Positions 13,342 to 49,798 of a stretch of 64,000 nt of DNA are shown in pieces (position 1 is the stretch's first letter; each line of letters begins with the position of its first letter). The translations under genes were made by a program, and so were the position numbers. The notes under the pieces were generated by a model, which ran no database searches, was not told the DNA's origin, and saw only the letters and a list, made by a program, of their open reading frames with translations. The stretch is from an uncultured Bacteroidales bacterium (GTDB lineage: Bacteria > Bacteroidota > Bacteroidia > Bacteroidales > VadinHA17), in contig CAVTSB010000001.1 in NCBI GenBank assembly GCA_963737255.1, positions 528,379 through 592,378 of the forward strand, read 5' to 3'.

Positions 13342-13377
13342 TAAAAATAAGACGACTCGTTGATTTTTTATAACGTC
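13342..13377 (+). repeat. 3' end of the long cassette-spacer element (variant)
   Basis: AAAAATAAGAC...TTGATTTTTTATAAC-GTC resembles the 43905-43946 copy. Confidence 0.5.
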
Positions 13378-13411
13378 AGGCACAATAATAACTTAAAACA
13401 AATTTAATGAT

Positions 13412-14080
13412 ATGAGACAAACTTTCTTTATTTTCCTTTTTTTGCCGGGTCTGATCTTTCTTACCTCTTGTGAAAAGAAAAAAGATTTACTTATCGATGG
13501 TGATGGTAATGTGTATGAAACACTAACTATTGGTTCACAGGAATGGCTGACTGAGAATCTTAAGACCACAAAGTACAATGATGGCACTCCGATTACTTTA
13601 ATAACCGAAGGTAATGAATGGTCACTGACAACTGCAGGAGCTTATTGCTGGTATGACAATAATCCTGCATTTTATAAAGATACTCTGGGTGCATTATATA
13701 ACTGGTATGCCGTTGATACAAGGAAGCTTTGCCCGAAAGGATGGCATGTGCCTTCCGGAGAAGAGTGGACAACAATGATTACTTATCTGGGAGGGGATGA
13801 TGTGGCCGGTGGAAAATTAAAATATATTGGTACTGACTATTGGTTATATCCAAATGAGGGGGCCACTAACGAAACCTCGTTCTCTGCGCTTGGTGCCGGC
13901 TTCAGATTTTACCTTGATGGAGACTTTCGGAAAATCGGGATTGACAGTTATTTTTGGTCTTCATCAGAAGCAACAAATACTACAGCGTACAGGCTGGGCT
14001 TAAACCATTTTATCGAAGGGGCACTCTATTCTACAAGTACCAAACCTCATGGTTTTAGCGTACGGTGCACGAAGGATTAA
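13412..14080 (+). CDS. Fibrobacter succinogenes major paralogous domain lipoprotein
   Basis: Lipobox LTSC; DGDGNVY..IGSQEWLTENL, LYNWYAV, LCPKGWHVPS..EW, GFSVRC. Confidence 0.9.
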   Translation: MRQTFFIFLFLPGLIFLTSCEKKKDLLIDGDGNVYETLTIGSQEWLTENLKTTKYNDGTPITLITEGNEWSLTTAGAYCWYDNNPAFYKDTLGALYNWYAVDTRKLCPKGWHVPSGEEWTTMITYLGGDDVAGGKLKYIGTDYWLYPNEGATNETSFSALGAGFRFYLDGDFRKIGIDSYFWSSSEATNTTAYRLGLNHFIEGALYSTSTKPHGFSVRCTKD

Positions 14081-14129
14081 AAACAAAGGCAGCTAATATC
14101 GGTTGAAATTCAAATTTATAACAACCTAC

Positions 14130-14828
14130 ATGAAAACACGTAATATTTTGTGTCTCTGCTATTGCCTGGCCTTTATATTCTCCTGTTCTGTTTCAGGTCA
14201 GTCTTCTTTTCTTAAACACTATGAAACCAGGGAATCATTGGAATCAGATGGCAATGAGATTATTGCCGAATTCGACCTGTTCATTAAGGACCAGGGTTTT
14301 AGTCTACCCGCTATTCCAAAAGTAAAAATTCAAACTGAACCATCGTTAATCAGAATAGACAGGCAAAATAATACTGTTATTGTGCCTTATTGGGACGACC
14401 TGACAAATGATCAGAAAGAGATTTTTAAATCATGGAGAGGCGAAAATGCCGAGGAGTTGTTTGTTTTAATGTTCAACTGGTTTTTTATACCACATGAACT
14501 TGGCCATTTTATTAATCCGATGATTCATGATTTAAATCCTTATCAATGTGAGCGGGAAGCAAACGAGGTTGCTGTAATGTTTTTCAGAAGAAATCCTGAA
14601 AATTTTGAAAAGCTTGATTTTCTAAAGAAATCATTAACGCAAGTTCTGGAAATTCTGCCAAAAATTGATTTTGGTAATATGTCAGAAGCGGAATATTTCA
14701 ATGCCAATTATCAGAAGATTGGGAATAACCCAAATGTATACGGGTACTTTCAACTCAAGTTTATACTGAACATATTAAATAATCAGAAAGATTTTAGTAT
14801 TAAAAAGTATTTTGATCAGCAATTATGA
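14130..14828 (+). CDS. Hypothetical exported protein with HExxH metallopeptidase-like motif
   Basis: Likely start ATG 14130; HELGH followed by EREAN. Confidence 0.65.
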   Translation: MKTRNILCLCYCLAFIFSCSVSGQSSFLKHYETRESLESDGNEIIAEFDLFIKDQGFSLPAIPKVKIQTEPSLIRIDRQNNTVIVPYWDDLTNDQKEIFKSWRGENAEELFVLMFNWFFIPHELGHFINPMIHDLNPYQCEREANEVAVMFFRRNPENFEKLDFLKKSLTQVLEILPKIDFGNMSEAEYFNANYQKIGNNPNVYGYFQLKFILNILNNQKDFSIKKYFDQQL

Positions 14829-14831
14829 TCA

Positions 14832-14896
14832 TTTCGGATTTCAGATTTCGGATTGTGTGTTTCTAAATCCGCAATCCGCAATCCGCAATCCGCAAT
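14832..14896. repeat. Inverted heptamer module (TTTCGGA)n ... (ATCCGCA)n
   Basis: Four tandem ATCCGCA units facing TTTCGGA-type units; homologous module at 16003-16080. Confidence 0.85.
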
Positions 14897-14934
14897 AATT
14901 TAACCGATTATTTCTTCTTTCTGCTGGTTACAAT

Positions 14935-14982
14935 CCGATAAAATAGGACCACTTTTTGATGATTTATAACGAATTAGGTTTC
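14935..14982 (+). repeat. 3' end of the long spacer element plus cassette start (ATTAGGTTTC)
   Basis: CACTTTTTGATGATTTATAACGA-ATTAGGTTTC; the final 10 bp complement GAAACGCTAAT (15897-15907) with one bulge. Confidence 0.75.
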
Positions 14983-15125
14983 ATAGCCTCGAATTAACAG
15001 ACTATCTGCATCTTAACCATTTACATGAAACTCAAAGATTTCACACCATGACGACTGAACTTCTTCCCAACTGGACAAAAAAAAATAGAAAAGCAGACAA
15101 CCTGCTAACTTTAAATTATCTAAAA

Positions 15126-15857
15126 ATGAAATTAAATCCGTTATTAGTCATCGCACTTTGTGCATTGTATTTTTCTGGATGCGGATCGAATCCTACAGGA
15201 GATATAGATGCGATTAGCAAAAACCCATATGATACTTTAATCATTAGAAAAATAAGTAATGAATTATATATTTGTACCTGTAACCCCAATAAATCTTTTC
15301 CAAGCGGAGCAGGGAATTTATATTTTCAAGGAAAATGGAAACAAGATTTAGTAAACAAGGAGGTTGATTATAGAAATTGTGATGAGAGATTTTTAATTCA
15401 ATGGGATTTATCCGAATTACCAAAGGGGATTGAGATAGTCGAAGCTAAAATGGAGTTGTATTGTAATGATTTTAAAGGTGATAAACAAGGACAATTAGTA
15501 TACGAGTCTATAACTGAACCATGGAATGCTGATATTGGATATAGCAAAAAACCAAATACCATAATTGATGATAGAGTCTTAACTGATTGGCCAAAAGCGA
15601 AACAAAATCATGTCATAGATATTACAAATTTTATTAAAAAATGGTACTATAATGAAATTCCTAATTATGGATTGATGGGGTATAGTATTAATACTGAAAC
15701 TACGAATTCGGCAGTGTTTTGTTCTTCCATATATCCCGATAAAGCATTACAGCCAAAACTTGTAGTTATTTTTAAAAAGAATAAAGCATTTAATAAAAGT
15801 AAAGAAATTGTATATGATCAGGACCAGATTTCTGAAATAGACGGAATACATCTATAA
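15126..15857 (+). CDS. DNRLRE-domain (CBM96-like) lipoprotein
   Basis: Likely start 15126, lipobox FSGC; RFLIQWDLSELP..IVEAKMELY, DIT..IKKW...PNYGLM, PKLVV. Confidence 0.72.
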   Translation: MKLNPLLVIALCALYFSGCGSNPTGDIDAISKNPYDTLIIRKISNELYICTCNPNKSFPSGAGNLYFQGKWKQDLVNKEVDYRNCDERFLIQWDLSELPKGIEIVEAKMELYCNDFKGDKQGQLVYESITEPWNADIGYSKKPNTIIDDRVLTDWPKAKQNHVIDITNFIKKWYYNEIPNYGLMGYSINTETTNSAVFCSSIYPDKALQPKLVVIFKKNKAFNKSKEIVYDQDQISEIDGIHL

Positions 15858-15904
15858 AAGGACTGATTCACACCCTGACCAGATTTAACATGCTACGAAA
15901 CGCT

Positions 15905-16287
15905 AATACACAGGGCTTTAAATGGTGCGTAGCACCCGGTGGGGATCTCCGGTTGAATTTTATCCGTAACAGAAGGATAATCTGCAAGAATTTATTATGA
16001 TCATTTTGGATTTCGCCCGCCTGCCGGCAAGCAGGTATTTCGGATTGTATGTTTCTTAATCCGCAATCCGCAATCCGCATTCAGGAGATCAGGAGCCCGT
16101 TCGATGATCTTTAAGGTATTCCGGGAAAATATCCTTTTCATGGATTTTAATAAGTAAAAGATATGAGTTTACTTAATAATTGAGGTAATGGGTGTTGAGG
16201 GTTATGATACCCAAAAAAACAACCCGGATGGATACTGTTTACAACCCCGCAAAAATTAGACAACTTTTTGGTGATTTATAACGAGTT
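15905..16287 (+). repeat. Full-length (~383 bp) intergenic cassette-spacer element, copy A
   Basis: AATACACAGGGCTTTAAATGGTGCGTAGCACCCGGTGG ... GGGAAAATATCCTTTTCATGGAT ... TTTTTGGTGATTTATAACGAGTT; colinear with the copy at 41035-41390. Confidence 0.85.
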
Positions 16288-16353
16288 ATGTGTAAGGTTG
16301 GGCGCATCCGGACATAAAAAAAATAGTTACCTTTAAGGGATCATTCTTATAAA

Positions 16354-17190
16354 ATGACAGATTCGTGGTCAAAAATAGAAGTAGCATTAATTGTCGCTGA
16401 CTATTTTGATATGCTCAGCAAAGAGCTAAGCCGGTTTCCATATAAAAAAGCAGACCATAGAAGACAAATATTACTTCTTCTTAATAACAGATCAGAAGGA
16501 TCGATCGAATTTAAGCATCAAAATATCAGCGCAATACTGATAAATCTTGGTAGACCATATATCACTGGATATTTGCCACGTTATAATTACCAAAACCTGT
16601 TGGAAGACGAAGTTATAGACTACCTGATACATCATTCTGAAATTGAATCCGATTTCCACCAGTTTGTTGAAAAGGATTTAATTAAGCCACAAACCAGACT
16701 TGACTTTGAAAAAATTATTGTAACGCCTCCCGAGATGCTTACTGTAACTGAACCGAAACCATTATATAAACATAAAACTATTAAAATTAATTACTTAGAG
16801 AAAGAACAATCAAACAAAGTCATCGGACTATATGGAGAAGAAATAGTTATCGAGTATGAAAAATGGAATCTCATCAGATTAGGGAAAGACAAACTAGCTG
16901 ACAAAATTAAATGGATTTCAAAAGAAGAAGGTGATGGGGCTGGTTTTGACATCCTATCAAAAAACCTAAATGGAACAGATAAATATATCGAAGTAAAGAC
17001 GACCAGACTTGGAAAGGAAACACCCTTTTTCTTCTCTTCAAATGAACTTCAGTTTTCGATTAACAAAGCCACATATTATCATTTATACAGATTATTCAAT
17101 GTCGAAAGTGATGTTAAGCTCTTTCAAAAAAATGGGGCCTTGAATACTATTTGCAATTCTATTCCGACAATGTATAAGGGTTATTTCTAA
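16354..17190 (+). CDS. DUF3883 (NOV-C)-domain PD-(D/E)xK restriction-endonuclease-like protein
   Basis: N-terminal WSKIEVALIVADYFDML...SIEFKHQNISA; C-terminal GEE..IEYE, GDGAGFDILS, YIEVKTT, FFFSSNEL, YHLYRLF. Confidence 0.82.
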   Translation: MTDSWSKIEVALIVADYFDMLSKELSRFPYKKADHRRQILLLLNNRSEGSIEFKHQNISAILINLGRPYITGYLPRYNYQNLLEDEVIDYLIHHSEIESDFHQFVEKDLIKPQTRLDFEKIIVTPPEMLTVTEPKPLYKHKTIKINYLEKEQSNKVIGLYGEEIVIEYEKWNLIRLGKDKLADKIKWISKEEGDGAGFDILSKNLNGTDKYIEVKTTRLGKETPFFFSSNELQFSINKATYYHLYRLFNVESDVKLFQKNGALNTICNSIPTMYKGYF

Positions 17191-17236
17191 TAATCATGTC
17201 CAATATTTTTCTTATACCATGACAGTTTTAAATATA

Positions 17237-17742
17237 CCCTCCACATAAAACGGACGGTATAATTATTAAGCTCTTCCCAGTTTTTGCCCCGCCTCAGCGG
17301 GATTTCATCGCTTCCCTCCTCAACTTTTGCTCCTGCACCCAGATAGATTCGTAATGGTTCTTGCACCCGGACACCAGCCTTCGCTACCACCTTCACTTCG
17401 TTTCGGCGGCCAAAGAAAGCTACGGCTGTCAAAGCGCGCATCCACACCCAATTAAATCCTGCAACGTGATAAATTTCTGGCTCCAAGACAGTTTGTACCG
17501 CGACACTTCGCCAGTGCCCCCAACAAAAATCCTGTACCGTGATAGTTTACTGGCTCCGATCAAACTTGTATCGCGACACTCGTAATGCTCAATAAAATTT
17601 GTACCATTACCGATAGCTATCGGGAGGCAAAAAGTGCGCCATACACTTGCACTATGATCCGCCAGCAGGCAGAGCTAAAGTACCGGGATTGGTATCCGGT
17701 GCTTGCGTCGGGTAACACATCCTACCCATATTGCCGGGCGTT
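17237..17742 (+). repeat. ~505-bp non-coding attC-like spacer with an internal 43-bp direct repeat
   Basis: Starts CCCTCCACATAAA (complements the 16285 cassette start), ends CCCATATTGCCGGGC-GTT; 17465-17507 vs 17538-17580 match at 33/43 positions. Confidence 0.6.
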
Positions 17743-17892
17743 ATAGTTAATTGCCAAATTATCTGCACATTAGACAACTCCACAAGCAACTATCTATTAC
17801 TTAAAATCAACATTTTCATAGAATTTATTCTGGATATAGCAAATTGGCTTAATTCTTGATAATGTTCAACATACTCCTAAATACCTGAAACA

Positions 17893-18516
17893 ATGAAAAA
17901 ATCTATTTTGACTTCTATTGTTTTCATTTTGACTACGATTCTTTATGGCCAACAGGACCCCTTTGGCAACAGTGACCAAGACAACCTTAATTTTAAATCG
18001 GTAATTAAGATTTCTGTCTCCCCAACTGAAAATATTGCTCTATACAACCAACCTGTAGAAGGTGGACCAGGACGGAAGTTTAAACCCGGATTTAGTACTT
18101 CGTTTGAATATTTATTCCGCAGCAATAAAAAAATAAATCTTGGATTTGGATTGTGTTATCAATTCGCTCAAGCAGAGTACACTCCGAATATGAATACTGG
18201 TGATTTTACAGGACAGATTGATAAGATTAGTGTTATATCATTCAACTTTTCAACCATCTATAAATCAAAGAAGGACTTTTATCTAAGCCTCAATCCAATG
18301 GTAACGCTGCAACTTAATTACAATTCAGATTTCATAACAGATAAGCAAACCGGACTTGGCCTATCCTTTTCAGTTGGAAAATATTTCAATCTTAACGATA
18401 AGCTTCGACTAAACGTCGAACCAAAACTTTGGATTCACAATATTGTTCCATTCCGGAACGAAAATCTACCTTTAAGACTGACTATTTTCGGATTAAATCT
18501 TGGATTAGTTTTCTGA
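17893..18516 (+). CDS. Outer-membrane beta-barrel protein
   Basis: Signal peptide, alternating amphipathic strands, C-terminal GLNLGLVF. Confidence 0.75.
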   Translation: MKKSILTSIVFILTTILYGQQDPFGNSDQDNLNFKSVIKISVSPTENIALYNQPVEGGPGRKFKPGFSTSFEYLFRSNKKINLGFGLCYQFAQAEYTPNMNTGDFTGQIDKISVISFNFSTIYKSKKDFYLSLNPMVTLQLNYNSDFITDKQTGLGLSFSVGKYFNLNDKLRLNVEPKLWIHNIVPFRNENLPLRLTIFGLNLGLVF

Positions 18517-18594
18517 AAAAGTTTCAGCCAACTCCCGTTATGGTTAAGCTGGGGCATACAGATTTAAATTTGACTTCTTTAATATCTTCATACT

Positions 18595-19728
18595 ATGAAA
18601 TATTTAATTACAATTTTGATTTTACTTGGCTCTTTGAACACTAGTGCTCAGAAGAAAAGACCAATTGATTTTAAAATTAAAATAGGTATTCTGGAAGCTG
18701 GGAAAAATGATGCTATTACTGATGTACCTGGGGTAAAGGTTGGTCATTTTACTCTAAGTCAAGGTGATTCCATAAATACTGGTGCTACTGCAATCATCCC
18801 GCATCCTGATAATATTTTTCAAAACAAAGTACCAGCTGGAATATTCATCGGAAATGGATATGGGAAATTGACAGGATATCCTCAAGTAGAAGAACTTGGG
18901 AACATCGAGACTCCAATAATTCTTACAAATACTTTGAGCGTTCCAACGGCAGTTGATGCTATTATTGATTATACATTTAATTTTTCTGCAAACAAAAGTA
19001 TCAAAAGCGTAAATGCTATTGTCGGTGAAACTAATGATGGTGGTTTAAATGACATTAGAAAAAGATATCTCACAAAAGAACAAATGTTCCTTTCAATTCT
19101 TAATGCGGATACTGGTATTGTGAATGAAGGAAATGTTGGAGCTGGGACAGGAACATCATGTCTGGGCTTTAAAGGGGGTATTGGAACAGCTTCAAGAATA
19201 ATTCCAAAATCAAGAGGCGGTTACACTATAGGCGTACTGGTTCAGACAAATTTTGGAGGTATTTTACAAATAAATGGAGTTCCAATTGGTCTTGAGTTAG
19301 GTAAGCACAAGTTTAACAGGATAGAAGATGAGTATAGAGAAGATGGTTCGTGTATGATCGTCATAATGACAGATGCACCATTAGATTCGAGAAACCTGAA
19401 ACGATTAGCATCAAGATCAATGTATGGTATTGCAAGAACAGGAGGAATTTCATCAAATAGCAGTGGGGATTTTGCAATAGCAGTTTCTACAGCTCAAAAT
19501 CTTAGAATCCCTTATTCGACTGATTCCATGTATAATGATTTTAAGGTCCTGAAGAATGAATCTTTGGATATTTTATTCGAAGCTGTTATTGAGGCAACAG
19601 AAGAAGCTATAATTAATTCACTATTTGCTGCTGAGACAGTAACCGGGAATGATAATGTAACAGTTGAATCTATTCCTATTGACAAGACTTTGGAAATATT
19701 ACGAAAATATAATCGATTAAATAAATAA
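18595..19728 (+). CDS. P1/S58 family (DmpA-like) aminopeptidase
   Basis: NDAITDVPGVKVGH, GYGKLTG, VGETNDGGLND, EGNVGAGTG, KGGIGTASR, autoprocessing DG/SC site, EATEEAIINSL. Confidence 0.9.
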   Translation: MKYLITILILLGSLNTSAQKKRPIDFKIKIGILEAGKNDAITDVPGVKVGHFTLSQGDSINTGATAIIPHPDNIFQNKVPAGIFIGNGYGKLTGYPQVEELGNIETPIILTNTLSVPTAVDAIIDYTFNFSANKSIKSVNAIVGETNDGGLNDIRKRYLTKEQMFLSILNADTGIVNEGNVGAGTGTSCLGFKGGIGTASRIIPKSRGGYTIGVLVQTNFGGILQINGVPIGLELGKHKFNRIEDEYREDGSCMIVIMTDAPLDSRNLKRLASRSMYGIARTGGISSNSSGDFAIAVSTAQNLRIPYSTDSMYNDFKVLKNESLDILFEAVIEATEEAIINSLFAAETVTGNDNVTVESIPIDKTLEILRKYNRLNK

Positions 19729-19740
19729 AAGCCTAAGTAT

Positions 19741-19805
19741 AAAACACAGGGCTTTAAACGGTGCGAAGCACCCGGTAATGGAGCCCCGGTTGATCTAAAT
19801 CCCTC
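19741..19805 (+). repeat. 5' part of the long spacer element, copy B
   Basis: ACACAGGGCTTTAAACGGTGCGAAGCACCCGGT...CCCCGGTTGA. Confidence 0.85.
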
Positions 19806-19873
19806 CAGTAATGATATTATGGGGATTCAAAAGGGTTTTGTAACGATTGTTATTGTGTTGATAAGGGAAAAAG

Positions 19874-20423
19874 ATGATGAAAGAACGCAAACCGAACAGA
19901 TTACACGGATATGATTATTCTTCGGATAATTTTTATTTTGTTACGTCATGCGTTCAAAACAGAATTTGTTGTTTTGGTGAAATCAAAATCGTAGAATTCG
20001 TAGGGACAGGTCGCGACCTGTCCCTACAGGCCTTCCGCAAATGGTATTAAATGGCTATGGTAAAATTGCCGAGGAACAATGGTATTGGTTATCCGAACAA
20101 TATCAATATGTTTTTTTGCATGAATTTGTGGTGATGCCAAATCATATCCATGGCATCATAGAAATAAATCGGAACAATATCCTCGTACGGACAGGACGCG
20201 ACCTGCACGTACAACAACCAAAAATCAAATCATTATCCGAATTGATTGGTGCATATAAAACTACTGTATCCAAACAAATACATTTATCCGGATTTAAGAA
20301 TTCTCATGGCAGCGATCGTTTTATGACCATATCATTCGTGATGAACAATCAATGGATAGAATTTCCGATTACATCGTAAAGAATCCCATAAACTGGGAGC
20401 AAGATAAACTTTACAATATGTGA
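19874..20423 (+). mobile_element. REP-associated tyrosine (Y1 HUH) transposase, RAYT/IS200-like, two frameshifts
   Basis: Manual join: MKERKPNRLHGYDYS..YFVTSC / MVLNGYG...VVMPNHIHGI...SLSELIGAYKT / WQRSFYDHIIRDE...YIVKNPINW. Confidence 0.85.
20000..20027. repeat. Perfect 28-bp GTAG-type REP palindrome inside the RAYT gene
   Basis: GTAGGGACAGGTCG|CGACCTGTCCCTAC; degenerate second copy at 20185-20212. Confidence 0.9.
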
Positions 20424-20809
20424 ATGACAACACCTCCTTAATAGTTACCAAAGGCTGGTCCTACTGTAATCCGCTTTGCGATGCCGGAGCAGGTTATGGT
20501 GATTACCAGGAAAGGTCGTCACGGTTTTTGCTTTTACGTCAGGTTGCCTAGCTCCTCACGGAACTCATTCTCAATTACCTTTAACATATTTCAAATGATA
20601 TTATAATTATGCACTCATGATAACAAACCTCTAAGAAAACGCTGTTTAATTTCCCGGCTTGCCTCCTGAGTAAGAAGCCTCCCATTACCCTCCCTCCGCA
20701 AGCCTCTATTTCTCAGCCACTTTGATTAAGAGCTACGCAATCTAACCTCTTCGATATAATTTTTATCCCTGACAAATAATAATCTGATTCACCTGATAAA
20801 AAACAGAAA

Positions 20810-21787: not shown

Positions 21788-21847
21788 AAATATTTGTAAT
21801 TTTATGGTGATTTCCTTCAGTAACTGTTTAATCTTAAATTTATTAAT

Positions 21848-22201: not shown

Positions 22202-22379
22202 TTTCTTCCGTTGTATGCTGAGAACTACGAGCGGAACCGCATCAACACATCTGAGAAGCAGCAGCTTTATTAACGCCGGCATACTATAGTGGAACACTGA
22301 CTGAGAGCGATTGAGATAATCAGCGGATAATGCTTCGCGACAAAATCACCGGGAACTTTGCCTCAGTAGTTAGTCAAAA

Positions 22380-23749: not shown

Positions 23750-23760
23750 GGTGCAGGTTT

Positions 23761-34783: not shown

Positions 34784-34791
34784 CCGCACAC

Positions 34792-40458: not shown

Positions 40459-40559
40459 AATCTCACTTCTGAATCAACTTTTGCCATGACCAGATATGTG
40501 GGTTTTACATTTGGCCTTGTGCTTAATTTTAAAAACAGAAAAACTGAATCCATTTCAAA

Positions 40560-41021: not shown

Positions 41022-41034
41022 TAAAACGAAGCAC

Positions 41035-41390
41035 AATACACAAGGCTTTACACTGTGCAAAGTACCCGGTGGTTAGCCCCGGTTGAATTAAATCCTCTAT
41101 AAAAGGATTTTCGACAGGAATTCATCTCCGATACTGCAGAATTGCGGAAATTAACGTTCCTGTAACCGTGCGGGATATTCAGAAAATCAGGAAGCTGTAT
41201 GATGCTCTTTAAGGTGTAGCCAGGGAAAATATCCCTTTCAAGGATAATAATAAGTAAACGATTTGAGTTACATTAATAAATGTGAGTTAATAGGTGTTGA
41301 GGGATATGTGACCAAAAAAACAAATTCAACAAGGGCGTACTAAGTTTACCAACCCGGTACAAGTAAATCCACCTTTTGATGACAAAAATA
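41035..41390 (+). repeat. Near full-length long spacer element, copy F
   Basis: AATACACAAGGCTTTA...GTGCAAAGTACCCGGTGG...GGGATATTCAGAAAATCAGGAA...GGGAAAATATCCCTTTCAAGGATAATAATAAGTAAA...GGTGTTGAGGG...CACCTTTTGATGA. Confidence 0.85.
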
Positions 41391-41660
41391 GTACATAGGG
41401 CATTCACCAAACCGGGATGCTCCGTTAAATTCGCAAGCTAACAATGCCAAAAATGCTTTTCACCATGAAAGAGAAGTTTGTAACATTTGTTACATATTTT
41501 GTATCCTTAGTCAAAATTCACTCTGAATTTAAATCGTTAAATTCTGGTCCAAAACGGGAAAATATGTGAACACAGAATGTAACAATTATTACAATTGAGA
41601 TACAGGCAGTCAAGATATTAAACAAAGAAGTTTTAAATCAATAATCGTAAAACTTGCATT

Positions 41661-42875
41661 ATGAGAATTCTCATTTCAATTATTTTGATTTCGATTTTTA
41701 CAGACCAAACCTATTCACAAAAGAAGATTGTAACATATTATGACAAACTATGGAGACTCACAACGAAAGACTTTGCGGAATATAGCAGGATCAGTTATAT
41801 AGATACAGTTAAATATCAATATACAGGAGAGGTAAAAGATTTCTATATCAATGGAAGTCTGCAAATGAAGGGGAAATATCAAAACAATGTAAAGGTTGAC
41901 AGGTTCTTATTCTATTATCCAAATGGAAATCTGATGACTAATGGATTTTATAAAGATAACAGCAGATGGGGAATTTGGACCAATTATTATGAGAATGGAA
42001 ATGTGAGAGATAAAATTGCTTTTAATAAAGATTTCCTGGGGGCTCTCGAATATTATAATGAAAATGGGGATACTATTATTAAAAATGGAACAGGGCTGTG
42101 GCAAACACAATTTCTGAACGATTTTACTTACAGAATAGGGTTAGTAAAAGGGGAATTCAAAGATTCTCTCAGACATGGAAACTGGAACTATTATACAATC
42201 AGTTTAACACCTGAAGTAGATGAAGAGCCAAGACTTGAATGCACCGAAATTTACGAAAACGGAAGGTTCATTTCAGGTAAATATTATTGGGGAGGAGGGC
42301 ATATTCAGGATATTTACTCTCCGGTCATGACCATATTCCCGGAGTCGGTTAAATTTGAGAATACTGAAACATGGCAAAAAACACCATATGCTTCAAAGAA
42401 CGAATACCCTGTTCTCAGATTTCTGCCTGAATTGGATTCAACACTATTGCCCGTTGATATTTATGCAAGATTCCCAGGAGGATTTGATTCACTAATTACA
42501 ACATTCAATGAGAAAATTAAGCTGCCAAAATCATTAATAAAAGCTGATAAAACACTGGCATGCAGTTTTGGAGTTCTGATTAGTAAGGCTGGCAAATTAA
42601 AAATCATTGAAGATCCAAATCAAGTAGCATTAATTATAAGTCCAGCCAAGAAACCATTTTATGTTCAAGTAAAAAAGATTTTAAAGAATTTACCTGATTG
42701 GGAGCCAGCAAAACGAGACAACAAAAACGTATCAAATCATTTCGATTTCCGTATAATTATGGAAGATGGAAGTATCAAAATTTCAATATCAACACCAAAT
42801 AGACAAAATCCAATAAAAAACTTGTTCCCGATGGCTTCATACGGATCATCAATAAAGAATAATAATAATCTATAA
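41661..42875 (+). CDS. MORN-variant repeat (YwqK-like) exported protein with TonB-C-like tail
   Basis: Repeated YY.NG, G.W..YYENG; C-terminal ARFPGG...WEPAKRDNKNV. Confidence 0.7.
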   Translation: MRILISIILISIFTDQTYSQKKIVTYYDKLWRLTTKDFAEYSRISYIDTVKYQYTGEVKDFYINGSLQMKGKYQNNVKVDRFLFYYPNGNLMTNGFYKDNSRWGIWTNYYENGNVRDKIAFNKDFLGALEYYNENGDTIIKNGTGLWQTQFLNDFTYRIGLVKGEFKDSLRHGNWNYYTISLTPEVDEEPRLECTEIYENGRFISGKYYWGGGHIQDIYSPVMTIFPESVKFENTETWQKTPYASKNEYPVLRFLPELDSTLLPVDIYARFPGGFDSLITTFNEKIKLPKSLIKADKTLACSFGVLISKAGKLKIIEDPNQVALIISPAKKPFYVQVKKILKNLPDWEPAKRDNKNVSNHFDFRIIMEDGSIKISISTPNRQNPIKNLFPMASYGSSIKNNNNL

Positions 42876-42906
42876 CATTTCACAAAAAACTATATAAAAC
42901 CCTGTC

Positions 42907-43000
42907 AAACACAGGGCTTTAAACGGTGCGAAGCACCCGTGGTTAGCCCCAGCCCAATTAAATCCCCCATAAAAGGATTATCCAAAGGATTCATTTCAGG
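42907..43000 (+). repeat. 5' part of the long spacer element, copy G
   Basis: ACACAGGGCTTTAAACGGTGCGAAGCACCCG.GGTTAGCCCC...AATTAAATCCCCCATAAAAGGATTATCC...GGATTCATTTCA. Confidence 0.85.
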
Positions 43001-43053
43001 GTGTTGATGGACAGATTTCGTTCTATATTTGAATAATAGTGATTACTTACCGC

Positions 43054-43776
43054 ATGACAAAAATTTCAACCATTAACAAACTCGGCTTTTTTCCTTCATA
43101 CTCAATTTTCATATCTGCTGCATTATTGCTGTACCTTTTGACCAGATACCTGATTCCATATCTAAGCACAACTACCGGTCAGGAACCCATCCTATTCTGG
43201 TTTATTGTTGGTGGATTAGGAATTTTCACACCCATGATAATTCTGGGAGTGGTATTATTGAGATCAGAAGGACTTACATTCAGCAAAGAAACCTTTACTG
43301 ACAGACTCCGATTCCACAGACTCACTAAAAGAGATTTGTTTTGGACTTTAATTGGTTTTGTAGCTGTTTCATTATCAAGTGCCCTGATCTTAAAATTATT
43401 AGTGCTATTTGTCGGTGAATTTGACCCATCTCCCTCGTTCATGACATTTGAACCGCTCTCAAAAGGACGTTACTGGCTCCTTGCTGTCTGGTTACCCTTT
43501 TGGATTTTAAATATTCTTGGCGAGGAATTCTTATGGCGGGGAGTTATGTTTCCAAAACAAGAGATTGCATTTGGTAAGTATACCTGGATTATACATGGAT
43601 TTGGCTGGGGATTATTTCATCTTGCTTTTGGATGGAAATTACTATTAACCTTAATCCCATTATTATTTATCCAGTCTTTTATAATCCAAAAAACAAAAAA
43701 CACCTGGACGGGCGTAATACTTCATGCTGGATTAAACGGACCGAGCTTTGTAGCAATATCACTAGGATTTCTTTAA
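43054..43776 (+). CDS. CPBP-family (CAAX/Abi) intramembrane glutamic endopeptidase
   Basis: Multi-TM; GEEFLWRG, WGLFH, GVILHAGLN; own TATATTTG -7 box at 43024. Confidence 0.88.
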   Translation: MTKISTINKLGFFPSYSIFISAALLLYLLTRYLIPYLSTTTGQEPILFWFIVGGLGIFTPMIILGVVLLRSEGLTFSKETFTDRLRFHRLTKRDLFWTLIGFVAVSLSSALILKLLVLFVGEFDPSPSFMTFEPLSKGRYWLLAVWLPFWILNILGEEFLWRGVMFPKQEIAFGKYTWIIHGFGWGLFHLAFGWKLLLTLIPLLFIQSFIIQKTKNTWTGVILHAGLNGPSFVAISLGFL

Positions 43777-43782
43777 ATATAA

Positions 43783-43946
43783 CAACACATAACACGGATA
43801 ATGCTACATGGGTCGTGATGCCAATGTAACTTTTCCGTGACTTGAAAAATCCGGTTCTCTATCGTGAACAAGAACAACCCAGGCACGTTTCTGGTACTGA
43901 AGGAGTGTAAAAAATAAGACCTTTTTTTGATGATTTATAACGAGTC
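43783..43946 (+). repeat. attC-like spacer ending in the long-element 3' motif
   Basis: Starts CAACACATAAC just after the stop; ends AAAAATAAGACCTTTTTTTGATGATTTATAACGA-GTC. Confidence 0.7.
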
Positions 43947-44021
43947 AGGTGGCGGGCGAAACAAACTTCTGCTACAGACATAGATTTCTTCTATATTTAC
44001 AATATTCATATCAAACTGAAA

Positions 44022-44987
44022 ATGATATCATACATGTTCAAAAAATCCTTTAACATTATATCACTGTTTGTGTTTACAATTCTCTCTGTCAATGCACAAT
44101 TCCAAACTTCGCAACTGACTAAAACATATTATGACAGCAAACGGGACCGGGAGTTAACAACAGAAATCTGGATTCCGGAAAAATCGAATTCTGAACCATT
44201 TCGATTAATTATGTTTTCCCACGGTACAGGTGGCAACAGGCTTGCTTGTCAGTGGTTTTGTGAAGGACTTGCAAAGAAAGGATTCCTGGTAGCCGCTGTT
44301 GACCATTATGGTAATACTTATACCAATCCTATTCCGAAAGAGTTCGTAACAGTATGGCAGCGACCACTTGATATAAGTTTTGTTTTGTCAAAGCTACTCA
44401 TCGAAAAAGAATTTGCAGGTAAAATAGATGAAAGCAAAATTTATGCTGCTGGATTTTCGCTGGGAGGATATACTTCAATTGCTTTGGCAGGAGCTAATTT
44501 TAACCTGGACAATTTTATTAGATTCATCCATACACCTCAAGGCTTTAAAGAAGCAAACATACCTGAAATGCCTGGCCTTATCAATCTTTTTGATCAGGAC
44601 AGTATTAAACTATCATTCAAAAGAGCTCCAAATCTTAAAGACAATAGAATAAAAGCTGTCTTTGTCATGGCACCTGCATTAGGTCAGGGATTTTTATCGA
44701 AAGACCAAATGAAAGATGTTAACATTCCGATATTTATTGCAGGGGTACAGTCAGACAGTATTGCTCCAATAACTACAAATGCTTTTCATTATAAAGAATT
44801 ATTGCCAAAAGCAGAATGGTTTTTAATAAAAGGCAAAGCAGGGCATTACGTTTTTTTAAATGAAGGGAATGAAGAAATGAAACAGGCAGCACCTACTTTT
44901 TTTAAGGACCCTGATGATGTTGCCAGGCGTAAAATACATCTGGAAATTGTTAACGAAGCGGAATCTTTCTTTTCAGGTCAAAAGTGA
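44022..44987 (+). CDS. Alpha/beta hydrolase (dienelactone hydrolase / PAF-acetylhydrolase-like), exported
   Basis: FSHGTGG, VAAVDHYGN, RPLDIS, GFSLGGYT nucleophile, AGHYVF. Confidence 0.85.
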   Translation: MISYMFKKSFNIISLFVFTILSVNAQFQTSQLTKTYYDSKRDRELTTEIWIPEKSNSEPFRLIMFSHGTGGNRLACQWFCEGLAKKGFLVAAVDHYGNTYTNPIPKEFVTVWQRPLDISFVLSKLLIEKEFAGKIDESKIYAAGFSLGGYTSIALAGANFNLDNFIRFIHTPQGFKEANIPEMPGLINLFDQDSIKLSFKRAPNLKDNRIKAVFVMAPALGQGFLSKDQMKDVNIPIFIAGVQSDSIAPITTNAFHYKELLPKAEWFLIKGKAGHYVFLNEGNEEMKQAAPTFFKDPDDVARRKIHLEIVNEAESFFSGQK

Positions 44988-45071
44988 GATAAAGGACTAT
45001 CTATAGACACTTGAGGCAACCTAAATGAATATAAATTTGTTTATTATCCAATAAATAAGCAAATAATCCAA

Positions 45072-45446
45072 ATGTCAAAGATTAAACCTGCCAGTGTCGA
45101 CGAATATATTAATGCAGCTCCCACTATAGCCCGGGGGAAGTTGCGAGAAATTCGCTCCATTTTAAGGAAAGTTGCTCCAAATGCCACTGAGTTGCTCAAA
45201 TGGGGGTATCCGGTATTTATGGAAAACAGAATTCTCTTTTCCTATTCAGCACATAAAACGCATATAAACTTTATGCCTACAGGTCCCGCTATGGAGCCTT
45301 TCAAGGAAGAACTATCGGAGTTTATTACAGGTAAAGATACCATCCAAATACCTTACGACAGGTCACTTCCAGGGAGACTTTTACAAAAAATTGCTGAATA
45401 TAGAATTAAAGATGTAAGAGAGAATGATGCAAAATGGATGTATTAA
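45072..45446 (+). CDS. DUF1801 (YdhG-like) protein
   Basis: VDEYI..AP, APNATE.LKWGYP, GKDTIQIPYD. Confidence 0.85.
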   Translation: MSKIKPASVDEYINAAPTIARGKLREIRSILRKVAPNATELLKWGYPVFMENRILFSYSAHKTHINFMPTGPAMEPFKEELSEFITGKDTIQIPYDRSLPGRLLQKIAEYRIKDVRENDAKWMY

Positions 45447-45606
45447 AAATGATTCAAAACGAACCCGACCGTGACAAGAGAACTAAAGTAGAGATCTTAA
45501 GAATATATGATACGAGACAGGATCCTAATACATTGACTTTCTAAACGGGCCCTAAAAACAAACACGGACAATGCAACACCCAGCAGGAAACAGCAGAAAA
45601 CCTGAC

Positions 45607-46104
45607 ATGAAATTTATTATCTCCTCCACCTTGATTATTGTAACACTTTTTGTTTGTTCCTGTACAAATAAAAATTCTAAAATTATTGGCTCCTGGAAAG
45701 CATCTTTTGATGACTCATTGGTAAACCCGGTCCAATACCTTGATTTTAATAATGTGGGGAATAAACTTGCAATTTCTATTGATGAGCCAGACGAAGACTG
45801 GTATAACATACCTGGTGAGAAACTTTACTTTCAAAATGACAGTTTACACTTTGAAAGATTCTGGGGATTAGAAAAATATGATGGAAAAATACTGCCCGGA
45901 GACACAGTAATTAAAGGATCAAAACAAATTGATAATAAACATCCTGTTGCATGTACGCTAAAAAGGATTTCAAAAGAGAACCTGCTTTATAAGATCCCCC
46001 GGTCTGGACCAAACGGTAAATCTTTGGTCAGATATAACTACAGTAAACCTGTTCAGAATTCCGGAGTCAACAACTCAGCGTCCTTTGCGGTTACTTTTCA
46101 ATAA
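45607..46104 (+). CDS. Hypothetical lipoprotein, probably a truncated N-terminal domain of a larger protein
   Basis: Lipobox CSC; IIGSW; ends abruptly after YNYSKPVQ; 101-bp segment duplicated at 49028-49128. Confidence 0.55.
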   Translation: MKFIISSTLIIVTLFVCSCTNKNSKIIGSWKASFDDSLVNPVQYLDFNNVGNKLAISIDEPDEDWYNIPGEKLYFQNDSLHFERFWGLEKYDGKILPGDTVIKGSKQIDNKHPVACTLKRISKENLLYKIPRSGPNGKSLVRYNYSKPVQNSGVNNSASFAVTFQ

Positions 46105-46376
46105 TCTATTAGTTCTTCAATGTCCGTTCCGAAGAATATCGGAAGAATATTTGCGAAATAAATCGCAACTGATTTCTAATTTCATCAGGCCAGGTTTAAC
46201 AGGCTCTGCCGAAACATTGAAACTGATGTCATATTTGTTGTGATTAATAAAACAAAACCAGTTGAAAAAGGGTTACTATGTCAGCTCTGTATGGGTATCG
46301 GACAGACTCCCATTTGAACAGGTTTGAAAAGCCTGCTCCTGCGGATTTTAGTAATTAATTCTAATTCATTACTGGT

Positions 46377-47352
46377 ATGAACACATTTAAATCCCTTTAC
46401 ACCAATACGCTTCTTCTGTTATGTGTGTGTTTTCTCAACTTCCTGCTCAGCAACAGGAACTTCAACAGAAATAGTTTTGGTTGGCAGCACCCCGGGAGAC
46501 GAGTTGATTAAATCTTTGCTGACAATTCCCACGGATACAAAAGTAGATTTTATCAGGTGGAATTTAAAGTTAAACAATGCAAATGCCAAGCAGAATTCTT
46601 TTCTGTTGGACATTAATTTTGGGGAATCGCAGCCCAATACATCAGGATTTAAAAATGGCGGAGAAAAACGTAGTTTTGAAGGTACATTTACTGTCTCTGA
46701 AAATAAGGATGTAAACACCGGCAGTGAAATTTATTATCTAAAAAGCAAAAGTCTTCCCAAAGCTATTTCGATAATCAAAATCAGTGAAAACCTTTTTCAC
46801 CTGCTGACACCTCAAAACGAACTTATACCCGGAAATGGAGGGTGGAGCTATTCACTAAACAGGAAAGAGACTGTTAATTCAGGTAAAATTTTAATTTCTT
46901 CAACGATTTCAGACAACAAATCTTTACAACTTGTTTTTGAGGGAAGAACACCCTGTCAGGAAATTTCTTATGAACACCCTGAAATGAACACAAGCCAGTC
47001 GTGCTTTAAATTGAAATGGAAATTAATTCTAAACAAAGATTCTGTAAATCATCTTCCTACAACTTATATCATTCGAAAAGTAGTGGATAATGAGCCTCGT
47101 GACGTTTCAGGAAAATGGACAATTACTACGGGGATACCAGCAAATCCTGATGCAATTATTTATAAAATTGAGCCTGACAAACCCGATGAAGCCATTGCAT
47201 TTCTGGTAGCGGACGACAATGTTTTATTTTTTCTCGACAAAAATAATGAACCTTATATAGGAAACGAAAATTTTAGTTTTACACTAAATAAAAGACAGCC
47301 GCTGACAAGCGGCATAGCCGATAAGGGTCTCGGTGATTTCGAGGGTTTGTGA
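46377..47352 (+). CDS. NlpE N-terminal-like lipoprotein (two CxxC-type modules), frameshift in the signal region
   Basis: ATG 46377 is out of frame with the body ORF 46423-47352; VGSTPGD..FIRWNLKL and FEGRTPCQE..CFKLKWKLIL; last codons run into an attC-like GCCGCTGACAAGCGGC sequence. Confidence 0.6.
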
Positions 47353-47359
47353 CACATTT

Positions 47360-47450
47360 CACCTTTCTACGGCGTATGGCACGTCCCTACCAACACAAAA
47401 TACAAATCAATTTTTAAAACCGTTGAAACCCGGGAGACTCCCGATGGCGT
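47360..47450 (+). repeat. REP half plus second-family spacer end (CCCGGGAGACTCCC-GATGGCGTC)
   Basis: GTCCCTACCAACACAAAATACAAATCAATTT...CCCGGGAGACTCCC matches 35029-35079. Confidence 0.75.
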
Positions 47451-47495
47451 CATTTGTGGGAACACTATTATATTTGCATACTTACTGACTAAAAA

Positions 47496-48293
47496 ATGGA
47501 ACAAACAATTGAACCTGGTGACAAATCCTCAGAAAAAGCATCAAATAATAAACAAGAGACAGTACCTGCTGATGCAAGCATCCCTATTTCAGTTAATAAT
47601 CCAAACCGTGCACCCGGGAAAAAAATCAGAACTTATTTATTTGAGTTTTTGATGCTCTTCCTTGCAGTATTCTGTGGGTTTATAGCAGATAACTGGCGTG
47701 AGAAATTGTCTGAACACCAACGTGAGAAGACATTCATCAGTTCTATTGTAGAAGATATCAAATCAGATACTCTTCAATCTAGTAATGTAATAGAAAGGTT
47801 AAAAGTTATGCATAATGGTATTGATAGTGTTTTAATCGCATTATTATCTCCTGATGTAATTGAGAACTCAAACTATGTGTACAGGATATGGACTAAAAAC
47901 CTGGGACTGGAAGTTTTTGTTTCAAATGACAGGACTATTCAACAACTTAAAAGCAGTGGGGAGTTAAGACTTATAAGGAACAAGGAAGTTTCTGACAGAA
48001 TAATGAGATATGATCAAACCCTTAAAAAATATTACACACAATCCAATTTAATGTACAACGCAATAACAAATATGACTTACTATAGTCAGCTCTTTGATTT
48101 TATTAGTCTTAGTAAAGATCAACAAGTTCCTGTACCCTTAACTGAACAAGGTAAGTTATCTTTGAACCAGGCTTATTCCCACCTTGACTTATGGAACAGA
48201 GGTCTTATCGGATTAATCAGTTGGCTGGAAATTGTTAATGAAGAAGGGAAAAGTTTATTGGTGTTTATTCAAAAAGAATATCGTCTGGAATGA
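47496..48293 (+). CDS. Hypothetical single-TM Bacteroidota protein (DUF6090-like)
   Basis: YLFEFLMLFLAVFCGFIADNWRE, TIQQLKSSGELRLIRN; TATATTTG -7 box at ~47469. Confidence 0.7.
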   Translation: MEQTIEPGDKSSEKASNNKQETVPADASIPISVNNPNRAPGKKIRTYLFEFLMLFLAVFCGFIADNWREKLSEHQREKTFISSIVEDIKSDTLQSSNVIERLKVMHNGIDSVLIALLSPDVIENSNYVYRIWTKNLGLEVFVSNDRTIQQLKSSGELRLIRNKEVSDRIMRYDQTLKKYYTQSNLMYNAITNMTYYSQLFDFISLSKDQQVPVPLTEQGKLSLNQAYSHLDLWNRGLIGLISWLEIVNEEGKSLLVFIQKEYRLE

Positions 48294-48315
48294 CAATATA
48301 ATTACATGAACACAA

Positions 48316-48350
48316 AATAAACAGGGTTTTTAACAGTGCGTCACACCCGG
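48316..48350 (+). repeat. 5' fragment of the long spacer element, copy H
   Basis: AATAAACAGGGTTTTTAACAGTGCGTCACACCCGG. Confidence 0.7.
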
Positions 48351-48391
48351 CGGTTAATGATAATTTTTTATCTTTCATAAAAAGAATAATT

Positions 48392-48643
48392 ATGAAAAGT
48401 TTAAGAATGTCTGCGACAATTACAGTTATCCTTGGATTTCTTTCTGTAATTGCCTTGATCATGCTATTTCTGGCACTTAGTGACATTGCAGATCAGGAAC
48501 CTGATTTAACCCTGGAATGGTATGTTTCCGGGATTTGCATTTTTATTCTCAGTGCATTTACAATTTCTACTTTCTTTACGCTGGGATTCTTGTTTAAATC
48601 TAAAATCCTATATAGCGACCGTGGAGGAAAAGCTTTCAATTAG
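48392..48643 (+). CDS. Small two-TM membrane protein
   Basis: Two hydrophobic helices; LALSDIADQEPDLTLEW. Confidence 0.7.
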   Translation: MKSLRMSATITVILGFLSVIALIMLFLALSDIADQEPDLTLEWYVSGICIFILSAFTISTFFTLGFLFKSKILYSDRGGKAFN

Positions 48644-48817
48644 TGAAAAAGTGCTGCGCATAAAATTAGAGTCAGCAATTGAAGCTTATAAAAACGACAG
48701 GAAATGCAGTTGCGAAAATGATATCCGGGTCGTTGGCTCCGCATGTGATGGTTTTAAATGCTTCCAATGCATAACAGGAAAAAAACGCCCGGCAGGAGAT
48801 TACGAAAAACTATGATC

Positions 48818-48910
48818 CATCCCTTCCATGGATAATAATTAGTTAAAAATATGAGTTACCTTATAAATAAAGCTACTCTTCAATGATTTTTAACGAGTTG
48901 GCGGTCATTT
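48818..48910 (+). repeat. 3' half of the long spacer element (internally deleted) with GTTGGCGGTCATTT cassette start
   Basis: ATCCCTTCCATGGATAATAATTAGTTAAAAATATGAGTTACC ... ATGATTTTTAACGA-GTTGGCGG. Confidence 0.8.
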
Positions 48911-48937
48911 ACAAATAAAATTAAGACTATATAAGGA

Positions 48938-49171
48938 ATGAGAATATTTATACTTCTAATTATCATCCTTTTACCCTGCGCGGCTTCGGGACAGACAATT
49001 GCCAACTGTATTGAAATAATCGATAGTGACTGGTTTAATATACCTGGTGAGAAAATTTACTTTCAAAATGACAGTCTGCACTTTGAAAGATTCCGGGGAT
49101 TTGAAAAATATGATGGGAAAATCCTGCCTGTCATCCAGGACCGGAAACCTGACAACTTTCAATTATCGTGA
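48938..49171 (+). pseudogene. Chimeric remnant: signal peptide fused to a copy of part of 45607-46104
   Basis: DWFNIPGEKIYFQNDSLHFERF.G.EKYDGKILP nearly identical to the 45607 protein. Confidence 0.65.
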
Positions 49172-49253
49172 CCAAAATTTATCACTCAGGTACAATTTCA
49201 GCCAGGTTTTCTTTTAGCTTCACAGAATGAATTCTTAAAAACACAATTACCAT

Positions 49254-49415
49254 GTGCGCAGCACCCGGGGGTGAGTTCCATGGAAATAAATACCCCACAT
49301 AAAGATTATCCATAGGATTCATTTCAAGTATAGCAAAACCGAGGAAATTTGTGCCCCTGTAAGCATCCGGGATATTCGGAAAATCAGGAATCCATTTGAT
49401 GATTTTTAAGGAGTC
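49254..49415 (+). repeat. Long spacer element, copy I (shortened)
   Basis: GTGCGCAGCACCCGG...GATTATCCATAGGATTCATTTCA...GGGATATTCGGAAAATCAGGAA...TTGATGATTTTTAAGGAGTC. Confidence 0.8.
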
Positions 49416-49798
49416 AGCGGTTAGTTGCAATAACGTTAATTTATTTGTCACACTTTTTGCTCTCCTGCTTGCCGGCAGAAAGATGCTCCTGCACATAGGA
49501 CACATTCGCGCTGACCACATGTAACAGGCAGAATTTTAATTAATCAATCTGAATTAATAACAGACTTATATCTCAGGCTGAAGAGGGTCAATTTAAACTG
49601 TTGTTATATAGTCTGGTCTATTATTTTCCCACCAGGCCATTCAATGGAAAATTAGTTCTGAAGTCCTCTGGCAGCTATTATTCAATTGCTCAATCGCTAT
49701 TCATAGACATAGCCGTAAATAAAAATGCATGTATTTTAAAAATTCTTGTAGCGTATCGTAATCCAGGTGCATTTAACAGTTAAACAATCAAATTTAAC

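Follow-up and report, generated by a model that had tools for sequence, protein, structure and literature searches.

Both the definition of integrons and the search for them rely on the additional domain of their integrase IntI and a single attC model, and in sedentary chromosomal integrons of the Treponema denticola type the integrase gene is oriented as the cassettes are. The IntI region concerned is reportedly the family-defining additional domain, said to contact the extrahelical bases of attC. By IntI and attC criteria, Bacteroidota look nearly free of cassette arrays. In a passage on earlier work, the description of IntegronFinder 2.0 (PMC9024848) names In0 as all that was then known in Bacteroidetes, and Smyshlyaev et al. 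(PMC8138268) at one point call the insertion 'not fully conserved' in an integron-like subgroup. Here we describe an array of about 30 unrelated genes, mostly on the + strand with a shared repeat family in between, that occupies 14.9–49.4 kb of a 64,000-nt stretch of DNA (the window) from an uncultured Bacteroidales bacterium (GenBank assembly GCA_963737255.1, contig CAVTSB010000001.1, positions 528,379–592,378; G000:C1:528379-592378, where G000 is the studied genome, 98.9% complete). Probably, this array is an orphan that is atypical and in part decayed, and it belongs to an integron-like cassette system found widely among Bacteroidota. That system is complete in G000, because its hairpin sites follow an integrase gene on contig C5 and are also present on contigs C6 and C10. 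No description of such a system was found in the full-text literature, subscription journals not being covered.

The ends of the cassettes carry much of the evidence. A previous reading of these letters without database searches (the sequence-only reading) had named six pairs of complementary ends that differ from gene to gene, and all six were recovered: 14973/15897 (10/11 with a 1-nt indel), 16285/17237 (10/13), 18537/19730 (10/14), 34105/34786 (8/9), 35080/36141 (8/9) and 40517/41022 (13/15). Left ends can be fixed without complementarity because they directly follow conserved contexts (..TATAACGA^ or ..ACTCCC^, the caret marking a junction throughout), and right ends were set by the repeat boundary. 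Anchored in this way, the four ungapped cognate pairs agreed at 10, 9, 10 and 10 of 12 positions, against a mean of 3.7 of 12 for non-cognate pairs (sd 1.7, n = 92, maximum 9), and none of 20,000 random pairings reached the observed sum. Complementary ends (GTTATAGCCA...TGGCTATAA, 9/9) were also found in the array on contig C10 of the same genome. The inverted repeats flank the genes rather than the repeats and differ from gene to gene, which separates them from repetitive extragenic palindromes with their RAYT transposases (REP/RAYT) and from miniature inverted-repeat transposable elements (MITE); single-gene cassettes in one orientation with exchange at G^TT are, in this respect, those of an integron.

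Related strains carry the same cassettes in different orders. Contigs from four freshwater-sediment metagenome runs, which contain 0.27–0.49 of the sampled words and are uninformative for the uncovered parts, were placed on positions 30001–50000 at ≥90% likeness and yielded 13 joints (26 joint ends). In the joint 43944->40517 (3 runs), the attI-like core ..ATAACGAG is directly joined to TTGTGCTTAA, the left end of the gene-22 cassette, and the sequence across it, ..ACGAG^TTGTGC, is a G^TT junction. The right end of this cassette diverges at 41035 in other strains, where the joint 41035->39141 (3 runs, 72 other letters between, side up to 168 nt) places genes 20–21 after gene 22, the reverse of the order in the window. 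Joints 37486->34869 and 38750->34876 depart at most 2 nt from two pre-set right-end boundaries, loose ends at 34792 reveal at least two different upstream neighbours for one left arm of the shared repeat, and through the joint 41066->34039 the right arm 34039–34104 travels with the cassette that follows it. Altogether, five of the 26 joint ends (37486, 38750, 41035, 43944 and 40517) fall within 2 nt of pre-set boundaries, with about 0.09 expected by chance (14 boundaries, 20 kb). The junction of an attI-like core with the gene-22 left end and the swapped order of cassettes 20–21 and 22 support the cassette behaviour with integron-type logic that the sequence-only reading had proposed.

No recombinase open reading frame (ORF) was detected within the window, and no gene of the genome exceeded the cut-off of TIGR02249, the integron-integrase model. 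The lack of an integrase that the sequence-only reading had remarked on is therefore true of the window and not of the genome, in which an intact related recombinase stands with a putative attI and a regular array on contig C5. This 387-aa Xer/IntI-like tyrosine recombinase has Phage_int_SAM_4 and Phage_integrase domains, and its catalytic R, K, H, R, H and Y are invariant across 26 homologues. With the XerA model (cut-off 220) it scores 203 bits; with TIGR02249 (cut-off 265) it reaches 189 bits, split over two stretches, with model positions 180–238 skipped. Alignment with IntI4 (2a3v) covers residues 115–284 and 312–385, with 27 residues where IntI4 has 69, and alignment with XerA and XerD is continuous; the IntI additional domain is missing. 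The best sequence matches are XerA (5hxy, 125 bits) and XerD, and the source annotation of the protein is XerD or site-specific integrase, whereas the C-terminal ..SPFDDL tail aligns with IntI4 and not with the Xer chains.

Residues 1–70 of the C5 recombinase are confidently predicted (pLDDT 92) to form an extra N-terminal beta-beta-alpha-beta-beta-alpha-beta domain, for which no Pfam family was found and Foldseek returned nothing at E ≤ 0.001. Its best structural neighbours, the N-terminal domains of T4 UvsW (Z 7.0, root mean square deviation 2.1, 62 residues) and XPB (Z 5.8–5.9) and the SMARCAL1 HARP domain (Foldseek E 0.07), score at chance level, a best VIA-align Z of 7.0 being typical of models without a true match. 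The domain may offer a lead, and a lead only, towards DNA-structure recognition.

Downstream of the C5 integrase lie the attI-like core and then eight sites on the + strand that match the covariance model R1 introduced below, with cassette ends such as GTTAGCCACTATTTT / AAAAACAGTGGCTAAC. The eight include six tandem copies of a 352-nt cassette, and C6 and C10 hold one R1 site each, a whole-genome count that is a lower bound (150 of 1434 first-look candidates scored). The six near-identical cassettes with their hairpin site come directly after attI (L009 9757-11657; G000:C5:649757-651657), and the run may reflect true amplification or stem from the assembly.

The same arrangement recurs in other genomes. 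In a species-genome collection, 587 of 600 candidate stretches encode relatives, and 80 loci, nearly all from Bacteroidota, were kept. Against TIGR02249 the family scores 189–217 bits, below the cut-off. Complementary GTT...AAC 15-mers (at most 2 mismatches, 150–4000 nt apart) numbered 90 in 237 kb downstream of the integrase versus 36 in 366 kb upstream, and those downstream form tandem series whose first GTT site lies 48–123 nt past the stop codon in 24 loci. Before this first GTT, the 24 loci share an attI-like core with TATA at -9 to -6 (22–24 of 24) and A at -1 (23 of 24), and two direct repeats can be seen by eye upstream of it. At locus L014, cognate ends match over 10–15 nt. Eleven sites from eight loci align as YAAC-A-stem...stem-AAAC(C)-GTT, a hairpin in which all 16 predicted stem pairs show compensatory double changes and two 1x1 mismatches are conserved. 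The model R1 was built from these 11 sites and, at E ≤ 0.01, gave 85 matches, spread over 34 of 48 loci. The integrase strand has 83 of these, every one downstream of the gene, and the two - strand matches are echoes of strong + strand ones.

Integrase family and site class also go together across genomes. R1 sites were present in 76 of 151 sampled genomes, with 42 genomes having both sites and family integrase, 34 sites only, 9 integrase only and 66 neither (odds ratio 9.1; Fisher p 1.6e-8, overstated because related genomes are not independent). R1 sites showed no co-occurrence with TIGR02249-positive genes (odds ratio 1.25, p 0.6). Such IntI-like genes, full-model matches at 300–497 bits, were found in 67 of 201 sampled Bacteroidota genomes, and none of the 12 Bacteroidota loci tested had an R1 site within 9.5 kb of the classical IntI gene. 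The N-terminal domain was recognized in about 25 of 70 profile-positive genomes, the others matching from about position 90 on. Many contigs stop within 1–3 kb past the integrase gene. Family integrase genes also often come to within 100–250 nt of where the contig stops and have their 3' end outward, as assembly breaks at variable or repeated arrays would lead one to expect. One array downstream of a family integrase (G071:C22, L134) includes two identical-scoring 282-aa Xer-like recombinase genes, and many genomes of the genus have a further group of open frames, of 490–590 aa, that match integrase residues 105–387 only.

Set against described systems, the family resembles integrons and CALINs, attC clusters that have no integron-integrase (two or more sites recognized by IntegronFinder's model, without a neighbouring IntI), in having a tyrosine recombinase beside a putative attI, unrelated genes that are mostly single and on one strand, with a toxin-antitoxin pair among them, imperfect palindromic sites with ..YAAC and GTT.. 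ends and a G^TT junction, cassette-specific complementary ends, and a cassette order that varies between strains. It differs in its recombinase, which is without the IntI additional domain and in many members has the N-terminal domain of about 70 aa; in its stem, which begins 1 nt after AAC and 5 nt before GTT and has two conserved 1x1 mismatches instead of one-sided bulges; in its putative attI, whose last bases are also those of the family-wide core TATA..A^GTT; and, in the window, in sites whose sequence is conserved and which contain remnants of integrase and attI. Xer systems (XerA, XerC/D, pdif modules and integrative mobile elements exploiting Xer, IMEX) provide the closest sequences to the C5 recombinase, but its gene heads cassette arrays, its sites are hairpins of about 130 nt rather than the 28-bp dif-like sites with two 11-bp arms that serve Xer systems in dimer resolution (no search for dif-like sites was made), and its tail has no Xer counterpart. 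The TIGR02249-positive integrases share phylum and a related catalytic domain with the family, which, unlike them, adjoins arrays of R1-type sites. Despite its integron-like behaviour, the system is not filed as an integron because its recombinase lacks the domain that defines IntI. The proposal that Bacteroidota have a cassette system missed by classical criteria gains support from this integrase family and its site class. That canonical attC sites are absent was right for the window, which R1 does not match, and does not extend to the system elsewhere, which has covarying hairpins with YAAC...GTT ends.

The window's own sites are of another make. Shared repeats between the genes, which the sequence-only reading had also noticed, are real and form families of 4–8 copies in a repeat search of the window. 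Their left boundary is sharp: a gene-specific end in ..AAT, ..AAC or ..AAA is followed by ACACAGGGCTTTAAACGGTGCGAAGCACCC.., the A-type left arm. The genome has 22 copies of this arm (nhmmer), 9 of which lie in the window and the others on C3, C8, C10 and C11 and elsewhere on C1. Two copies of the repeat are full-length (the composite sites in the table below). Beyond the A arm, the repeat matches, on the same strand, the last codons of the C5 recombinase gene and the stretch downstream of it. Remnants of the last 12–23 integrase codons can be read in the window repeats (IQEIRSPFDDL, INVPVTVRDIQKIRKLYDAL and EEICAPVSIRDIRKIRNPFDDF, each followed by a stop codon), the C5 protein itself ending in ..TEIYTHVTTQSIQKIRSPFDDL; for the first of them, identity to the C5 gene is 88% over 42 nt (blastn). 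The right boundary, ..TTTATAACGA^GTTATG, is seen at four places of the window (14973, 16285, 43944 and 48897) and equals the sequence about 185 nt past the C5 stop codon (..ATATAACTA^GTTAGG). There are four to five internal attI cores in the array, three of them with the integrase gene 3' end, and the core at the array head is the same as the one that follows the C5 integrase and as the consensus of the family, TATA..A^GTT. The right partner of the A arm on C10 and C11 is ..GACTGTGTATAAAAC.., able to pair with ATACACAG; in the window its partner is an attI core, a ..ACTCCC^ arm or a truncation.

The integrase fragments themselves point to a possible origin. The genome's six to seven fragments all begin in the last 52 codons (aa 336–361, mostly 336–346), at or just past the GLRH codons (GGA TTA AGG CAC), none has upstream gene parts, and two are preceded by ..AAAACCG^TTATGGCAC, the 3' end of a site. 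This clustering of starts, together with the site 3' end before two copies, suggests recombination at a GTTAAGG-like secondary site within the integrase gene, an event that may have inactivated the platform and left the fossils behind.

Two other accounts of these repeats were tried and set aside. Read as the remnant of a - strand gene, the repeat shifts frame between copies, and the + strand integrase remnants explain the likeness better. An attI in the form of a giant hairpin including the integrase 3' end found no complementarity on C5 by eye. The A-type arm may derive from the integrase codons HSYATHLLESG, to which a short similarity was seen by eye; tblastn gave no support.

The coordinates of the array and its surroundings are collected below.

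Table 1. Features of the window, with positions numbered from its first letter; a caret marks a junction
Feature	Position	Strand	Details
Variable low-GC region	13319..53450		Flanks conserved in relatives
attI-like core remnant, array head	14935..14972	+	..TTTATAACGA^ATTAGG; repeat family D9; no integrase upstream
Cassette	14973..15907	+	ATTAGGTTTC / GAAACGCTAAT; gene 15048-15857, weak CBM96 match
Composite site	15908..16284	+	A-type left arm 15900-15997, palindromic repeat insert 16037-16082, integrase 3' remnant, attI-like core 16247-16284
Integrase remnant	16079..16114	+	Last 11 codons + stop (IQEIRSPFDDL); from translation
Cassette	16285..17249	+	GTTATGTGTAAGG...CCCTCCACATAAA; gene 16354-17190, NOV_C domain
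Long degenerate site	17250..17739	+	Ends resemble hairpin sites of locus L014 (..ACGGACGGTATAAT / CCCATATTGCCGGGC^GTTATAG); no R1 match
Cassette	18537..19743	+	GTTATGGTTAAGCT...AGCCTAAGTATAAA; peptidase S58 gene 18595-19728
Short A-type site	19735..19850	+	Left arm and TGTAACGATT^GTTATTG end
Degraded two-component system	22537..25125	-	Opposite strand to array
Two FtsX-like permease pseudogenes	25545..30406	+	After two-component system
HigB-like toxin and HTH/M78 antitoxin-like pair	32599..34036	+	Pfam
Cassette	34105..34794	+	GTTGTGTGC...GCACACAAT; preceded by ..GACAGACTCCC^, right arm 34039-34104
Cassette	35080..36149	+	GTTAAGTAA...TTACTTAAT; Kelch-repeat gene 35124-36119
A-type left arm	37476..37574	+	After gene 36314-37432; right-end boundary 37484; divergence points of other strains' contigs at 37486 and 37574
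Two-gene unit	39141..40516	+	Genes 39223-39543 and 39718-40458 (methyltransferase); other strains have it behind gene 22
Best-defined cassette (gene 22)	40517..41037	+	TTGTGCTTAATTTTA...gene 40560-41021 (DUF3795)...TAAAACGAAGCACAA(T)
Composite site	41038..41390	+	A-type left arm, integrase 3' remnant 41150-41212 (INVPVTVRDIQKIRKLYDAL, stop), degenerate attI-like region
A-type left arm	42902..42998	+	Before CPBP protease gene 43039-43776
Internal attI-like core	43906..43944	+	..TTTATAACGAG^; donor side of joint 43944->40517
Internal attI-like core	48859..48896	+	..TTTTTAACGA^GTTGGCG
Partial A-type arm and integrase 3' remnant	49254..49409	+	Arm 49254-49324; remnant 49341-49409 (EEICAPVSIRDIRKIRNPFDDF, stop)

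Putting these parts together, we propose a mechanism in which a recombinase related to Xer and IntI, without the IntI insertion and often with about 70 additional N-terminal residues, is transcribed towards the array and would act on an attI some 50–190 nt past its stop codon, ending TATA(A)ACNA^GTT. Between cassettes, the sites are hairpins of the form YAAC-A-[stem of ~17 bp, two 1x1 mismatches conserved]-loop-[stem]-AAAC(C)-GTT, presumably recombined as folded single strands by the C5-type enzyme. Exchange at G^TT would leave each cassette beginning with the partner of its own right end, which would account for the gene-specific complementary ends. Such an enzyme, working in trans, or copies since lost probably assembled and rearranged the window array; the sites of this array consist of a sequence-conserved A-type left arm joined to several kinds of right arm, and its internal attI cores with the integrase 3' end would be fossils of former platforms. 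The chances are about even that the system is a phylum-wide, unannotated integron analogue of Bacteroidota, combining a recombinase without the IntI insertion, often an N-terminal domain weakly resembling the branched-DNA-recognition modules of UvsW, XPB and SMARCAL1, and an attI TATA..A^GTT recombining with mismatch-bearing hairpin sites in around half of the sampled genomes, with the window as a later stage that holds integrase-3'-end and attI fossils.

Several explanations other than an array of this cassette system were weighed. Cassette logic and GTT/AAC-type ends are shared with integrons, and classical IntI genes do occur in the phylum at the frequency given above, so the window might be the decayed CALIN of a classical integron whose IntI, with the additional domain, recruited the cassettes and was later lost. 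We consider this very unlikely: nothing in this 98.9% complete genome passes the TIGR02249 cut-off, the gene remnants found within the sites are of the insertion-less family, and R1 sites neither adjoin the 12 classical IntI genes nor co-occur with such genes across genomes. Of the decayed CALIN that the sequence-only reading had entertained, the orphan and atypical state of the array stands and its descent from a classical IntI integron does not. The gene fragments bear on another account, a tandem accretion of integrative islands that target the integrase gene 3' end and each bring a replacement 3' end, as tRNA-gene islands do, since all six to seven fragments start within the last 52 codons and lack upstream gene parts. 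Against it, no N-terminal part of the integrase stands at the array head; most sites are without an integrase remnant, and the units are single genes of 0.5–1.2 kb without integration genes of their own, all of which makes this account extremely improbable.

The repeats could also be dispersed fragments of a mobile element, either small and integrase-bearing or MITE-like, in which case the genes would never have been cassettes and their order would have changed through homologous recombination. The sequence conservation of the A-type arms without covariation, copies truncated at various points, many contig joints inside repeats and a separate palindromic repeat inside one copy would all fit. 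However, the repeats are abutted by gene-specific complementary ends, the junction of attI core and TTGTGC falls exactly at the unique left end of cassette 22, and the same integrase family adjoins regular arrays whose ends are complementary over 10–15 nt; this explanation is accordingly unlikely in our estimation.

Interpreting the window as an orphan array of the integron-like system has to contend with a number of observations that weigh against it. R1 has no match in the window, with filters off too, the best score (13.1 bits, E 0.76) being a palindrome outside the array, and the A-type arms are sequence-conserved with a predicted hairpin of 3 bp only, which leaves folding of the window's own sites without support. 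The ends in the window complement each other moderately, and paired ends are recognizable in six to seven of about 30 genes only. The claim that cognate ends complement each other better than shuffled ones holds for the anchored ends; when the best complement of each right end was sought without anchoring, upstream sequence did no better than the downstream control, and complementarity alone is therefore weak. From 20.4 to 32.5 kb no sites were recognized, and - strand genes and several pseudogenes lie there. Four of the 13 joints (41920->42430, 42226->42659, 42853->44013 and 46680->47344) are off predicted boundaries, and several others lie inside repeats, where homologous recombination or alignment choice could yield them. 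Circular forms were not seen in the contigs, which cannot show circles. The C5 integrase is on a different contig from the window, in 34 of the 76 genomes that have R1 sites no family integrase reaches E ≤ 1e-80, and the co-occurrence p values are subject to the overstatement noted with them.

Beyond the array, the locus as a whole is variable, because each relative with the shared flank has other contents there. The GC content of about 13.3–53.4 kb is 36.8%, compared with 43–44% in the flanks. The left flank gene (12080-13318) is 86–88% identical in G005, G006 and G008, with different genes coming next in each, and right-flank homology with relatives begins at 53450–54036. No homologous cassettes and no R1 sites were found at this locus in relatives with shared flanks; these relatives share flanking genes only. 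The left flank gene (12099-13314) is frameshifted here into two overlapping ORFs and corresponds to an intact 404-aa ORF in G005, G006 and G008.

Pfam assignments in the array comprise peptidase S58, NOV_C, Kelch, a HigB-like toxin with its HTH/M78 partner, a methyltransferase, DUF3795, a CPBP protease, an alpha/beta hydrolase, DUF1801 and a C-terminal Lgt fragment, among others, and about ten array ORFs have no Pfam family. The genes are not all on the + strand, as had been thought, given the two-component system at 22.5–25.1 kb. A tRNA was the sole match in an Rfam scan of the window. The 112-aa ORF 20041-20379 has a ..PNHIHGII.. motif that may be reminiscent of IS200/RAYT-type Y1 transposases; it has no Pfam family at E ≤ 0.001. 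The two FtsX/MacB-like permease copies (25545-27747 and 27993-30406) are in tandem, 71–87% identical in pieces, and both broken by frameshifts, the second heavily. In the MORN-repeat gene 41661-42875, contigs of related strains are without 432 nt (41920-42659 region) and have 8 letters instead (3 runs).

Further repeats accompany those of the array. A separate palindromic repeat, ATTTCGGATT...AATCCGCAATCCGCAATCC, is found at 14831-14904 before the first attI-like core and as the insert of the first composite site, with copies also on C5, C6, C8 and C10. Another palindromic element, GGGACATGCCATGG...CCATGGCATGTCCC, lies at 53361-53420, by the right-hand edge of the variable region, and within two of the sites (34940-35060 and 47376-47443); it is this element that has the window's best, non-significant R1 score. 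A second array with A-type sites (L010, G000:C3:8001-26000) contains at least four paralogous lipoprotein genes of about 400–420 aa, with similar C-termini (..ETDNPILM..RLK), and an integrase 3' fragment.

If the interpretation is true, a major phylum of bacteria from soil, water and gut possesses a cassette-capture system of its own, with a gene pool that current tools leave unreported. The recombinase described here is without the domain that reportedly reads the extrahelical bases of attC, and its sites have mismatches instead of bulges; comparing both systems would reveal what is indispensable in the design of integrons. Fossils of integrase and attI within arrays bear on the birth and death of platforms and sites, which is a question for integrons too.

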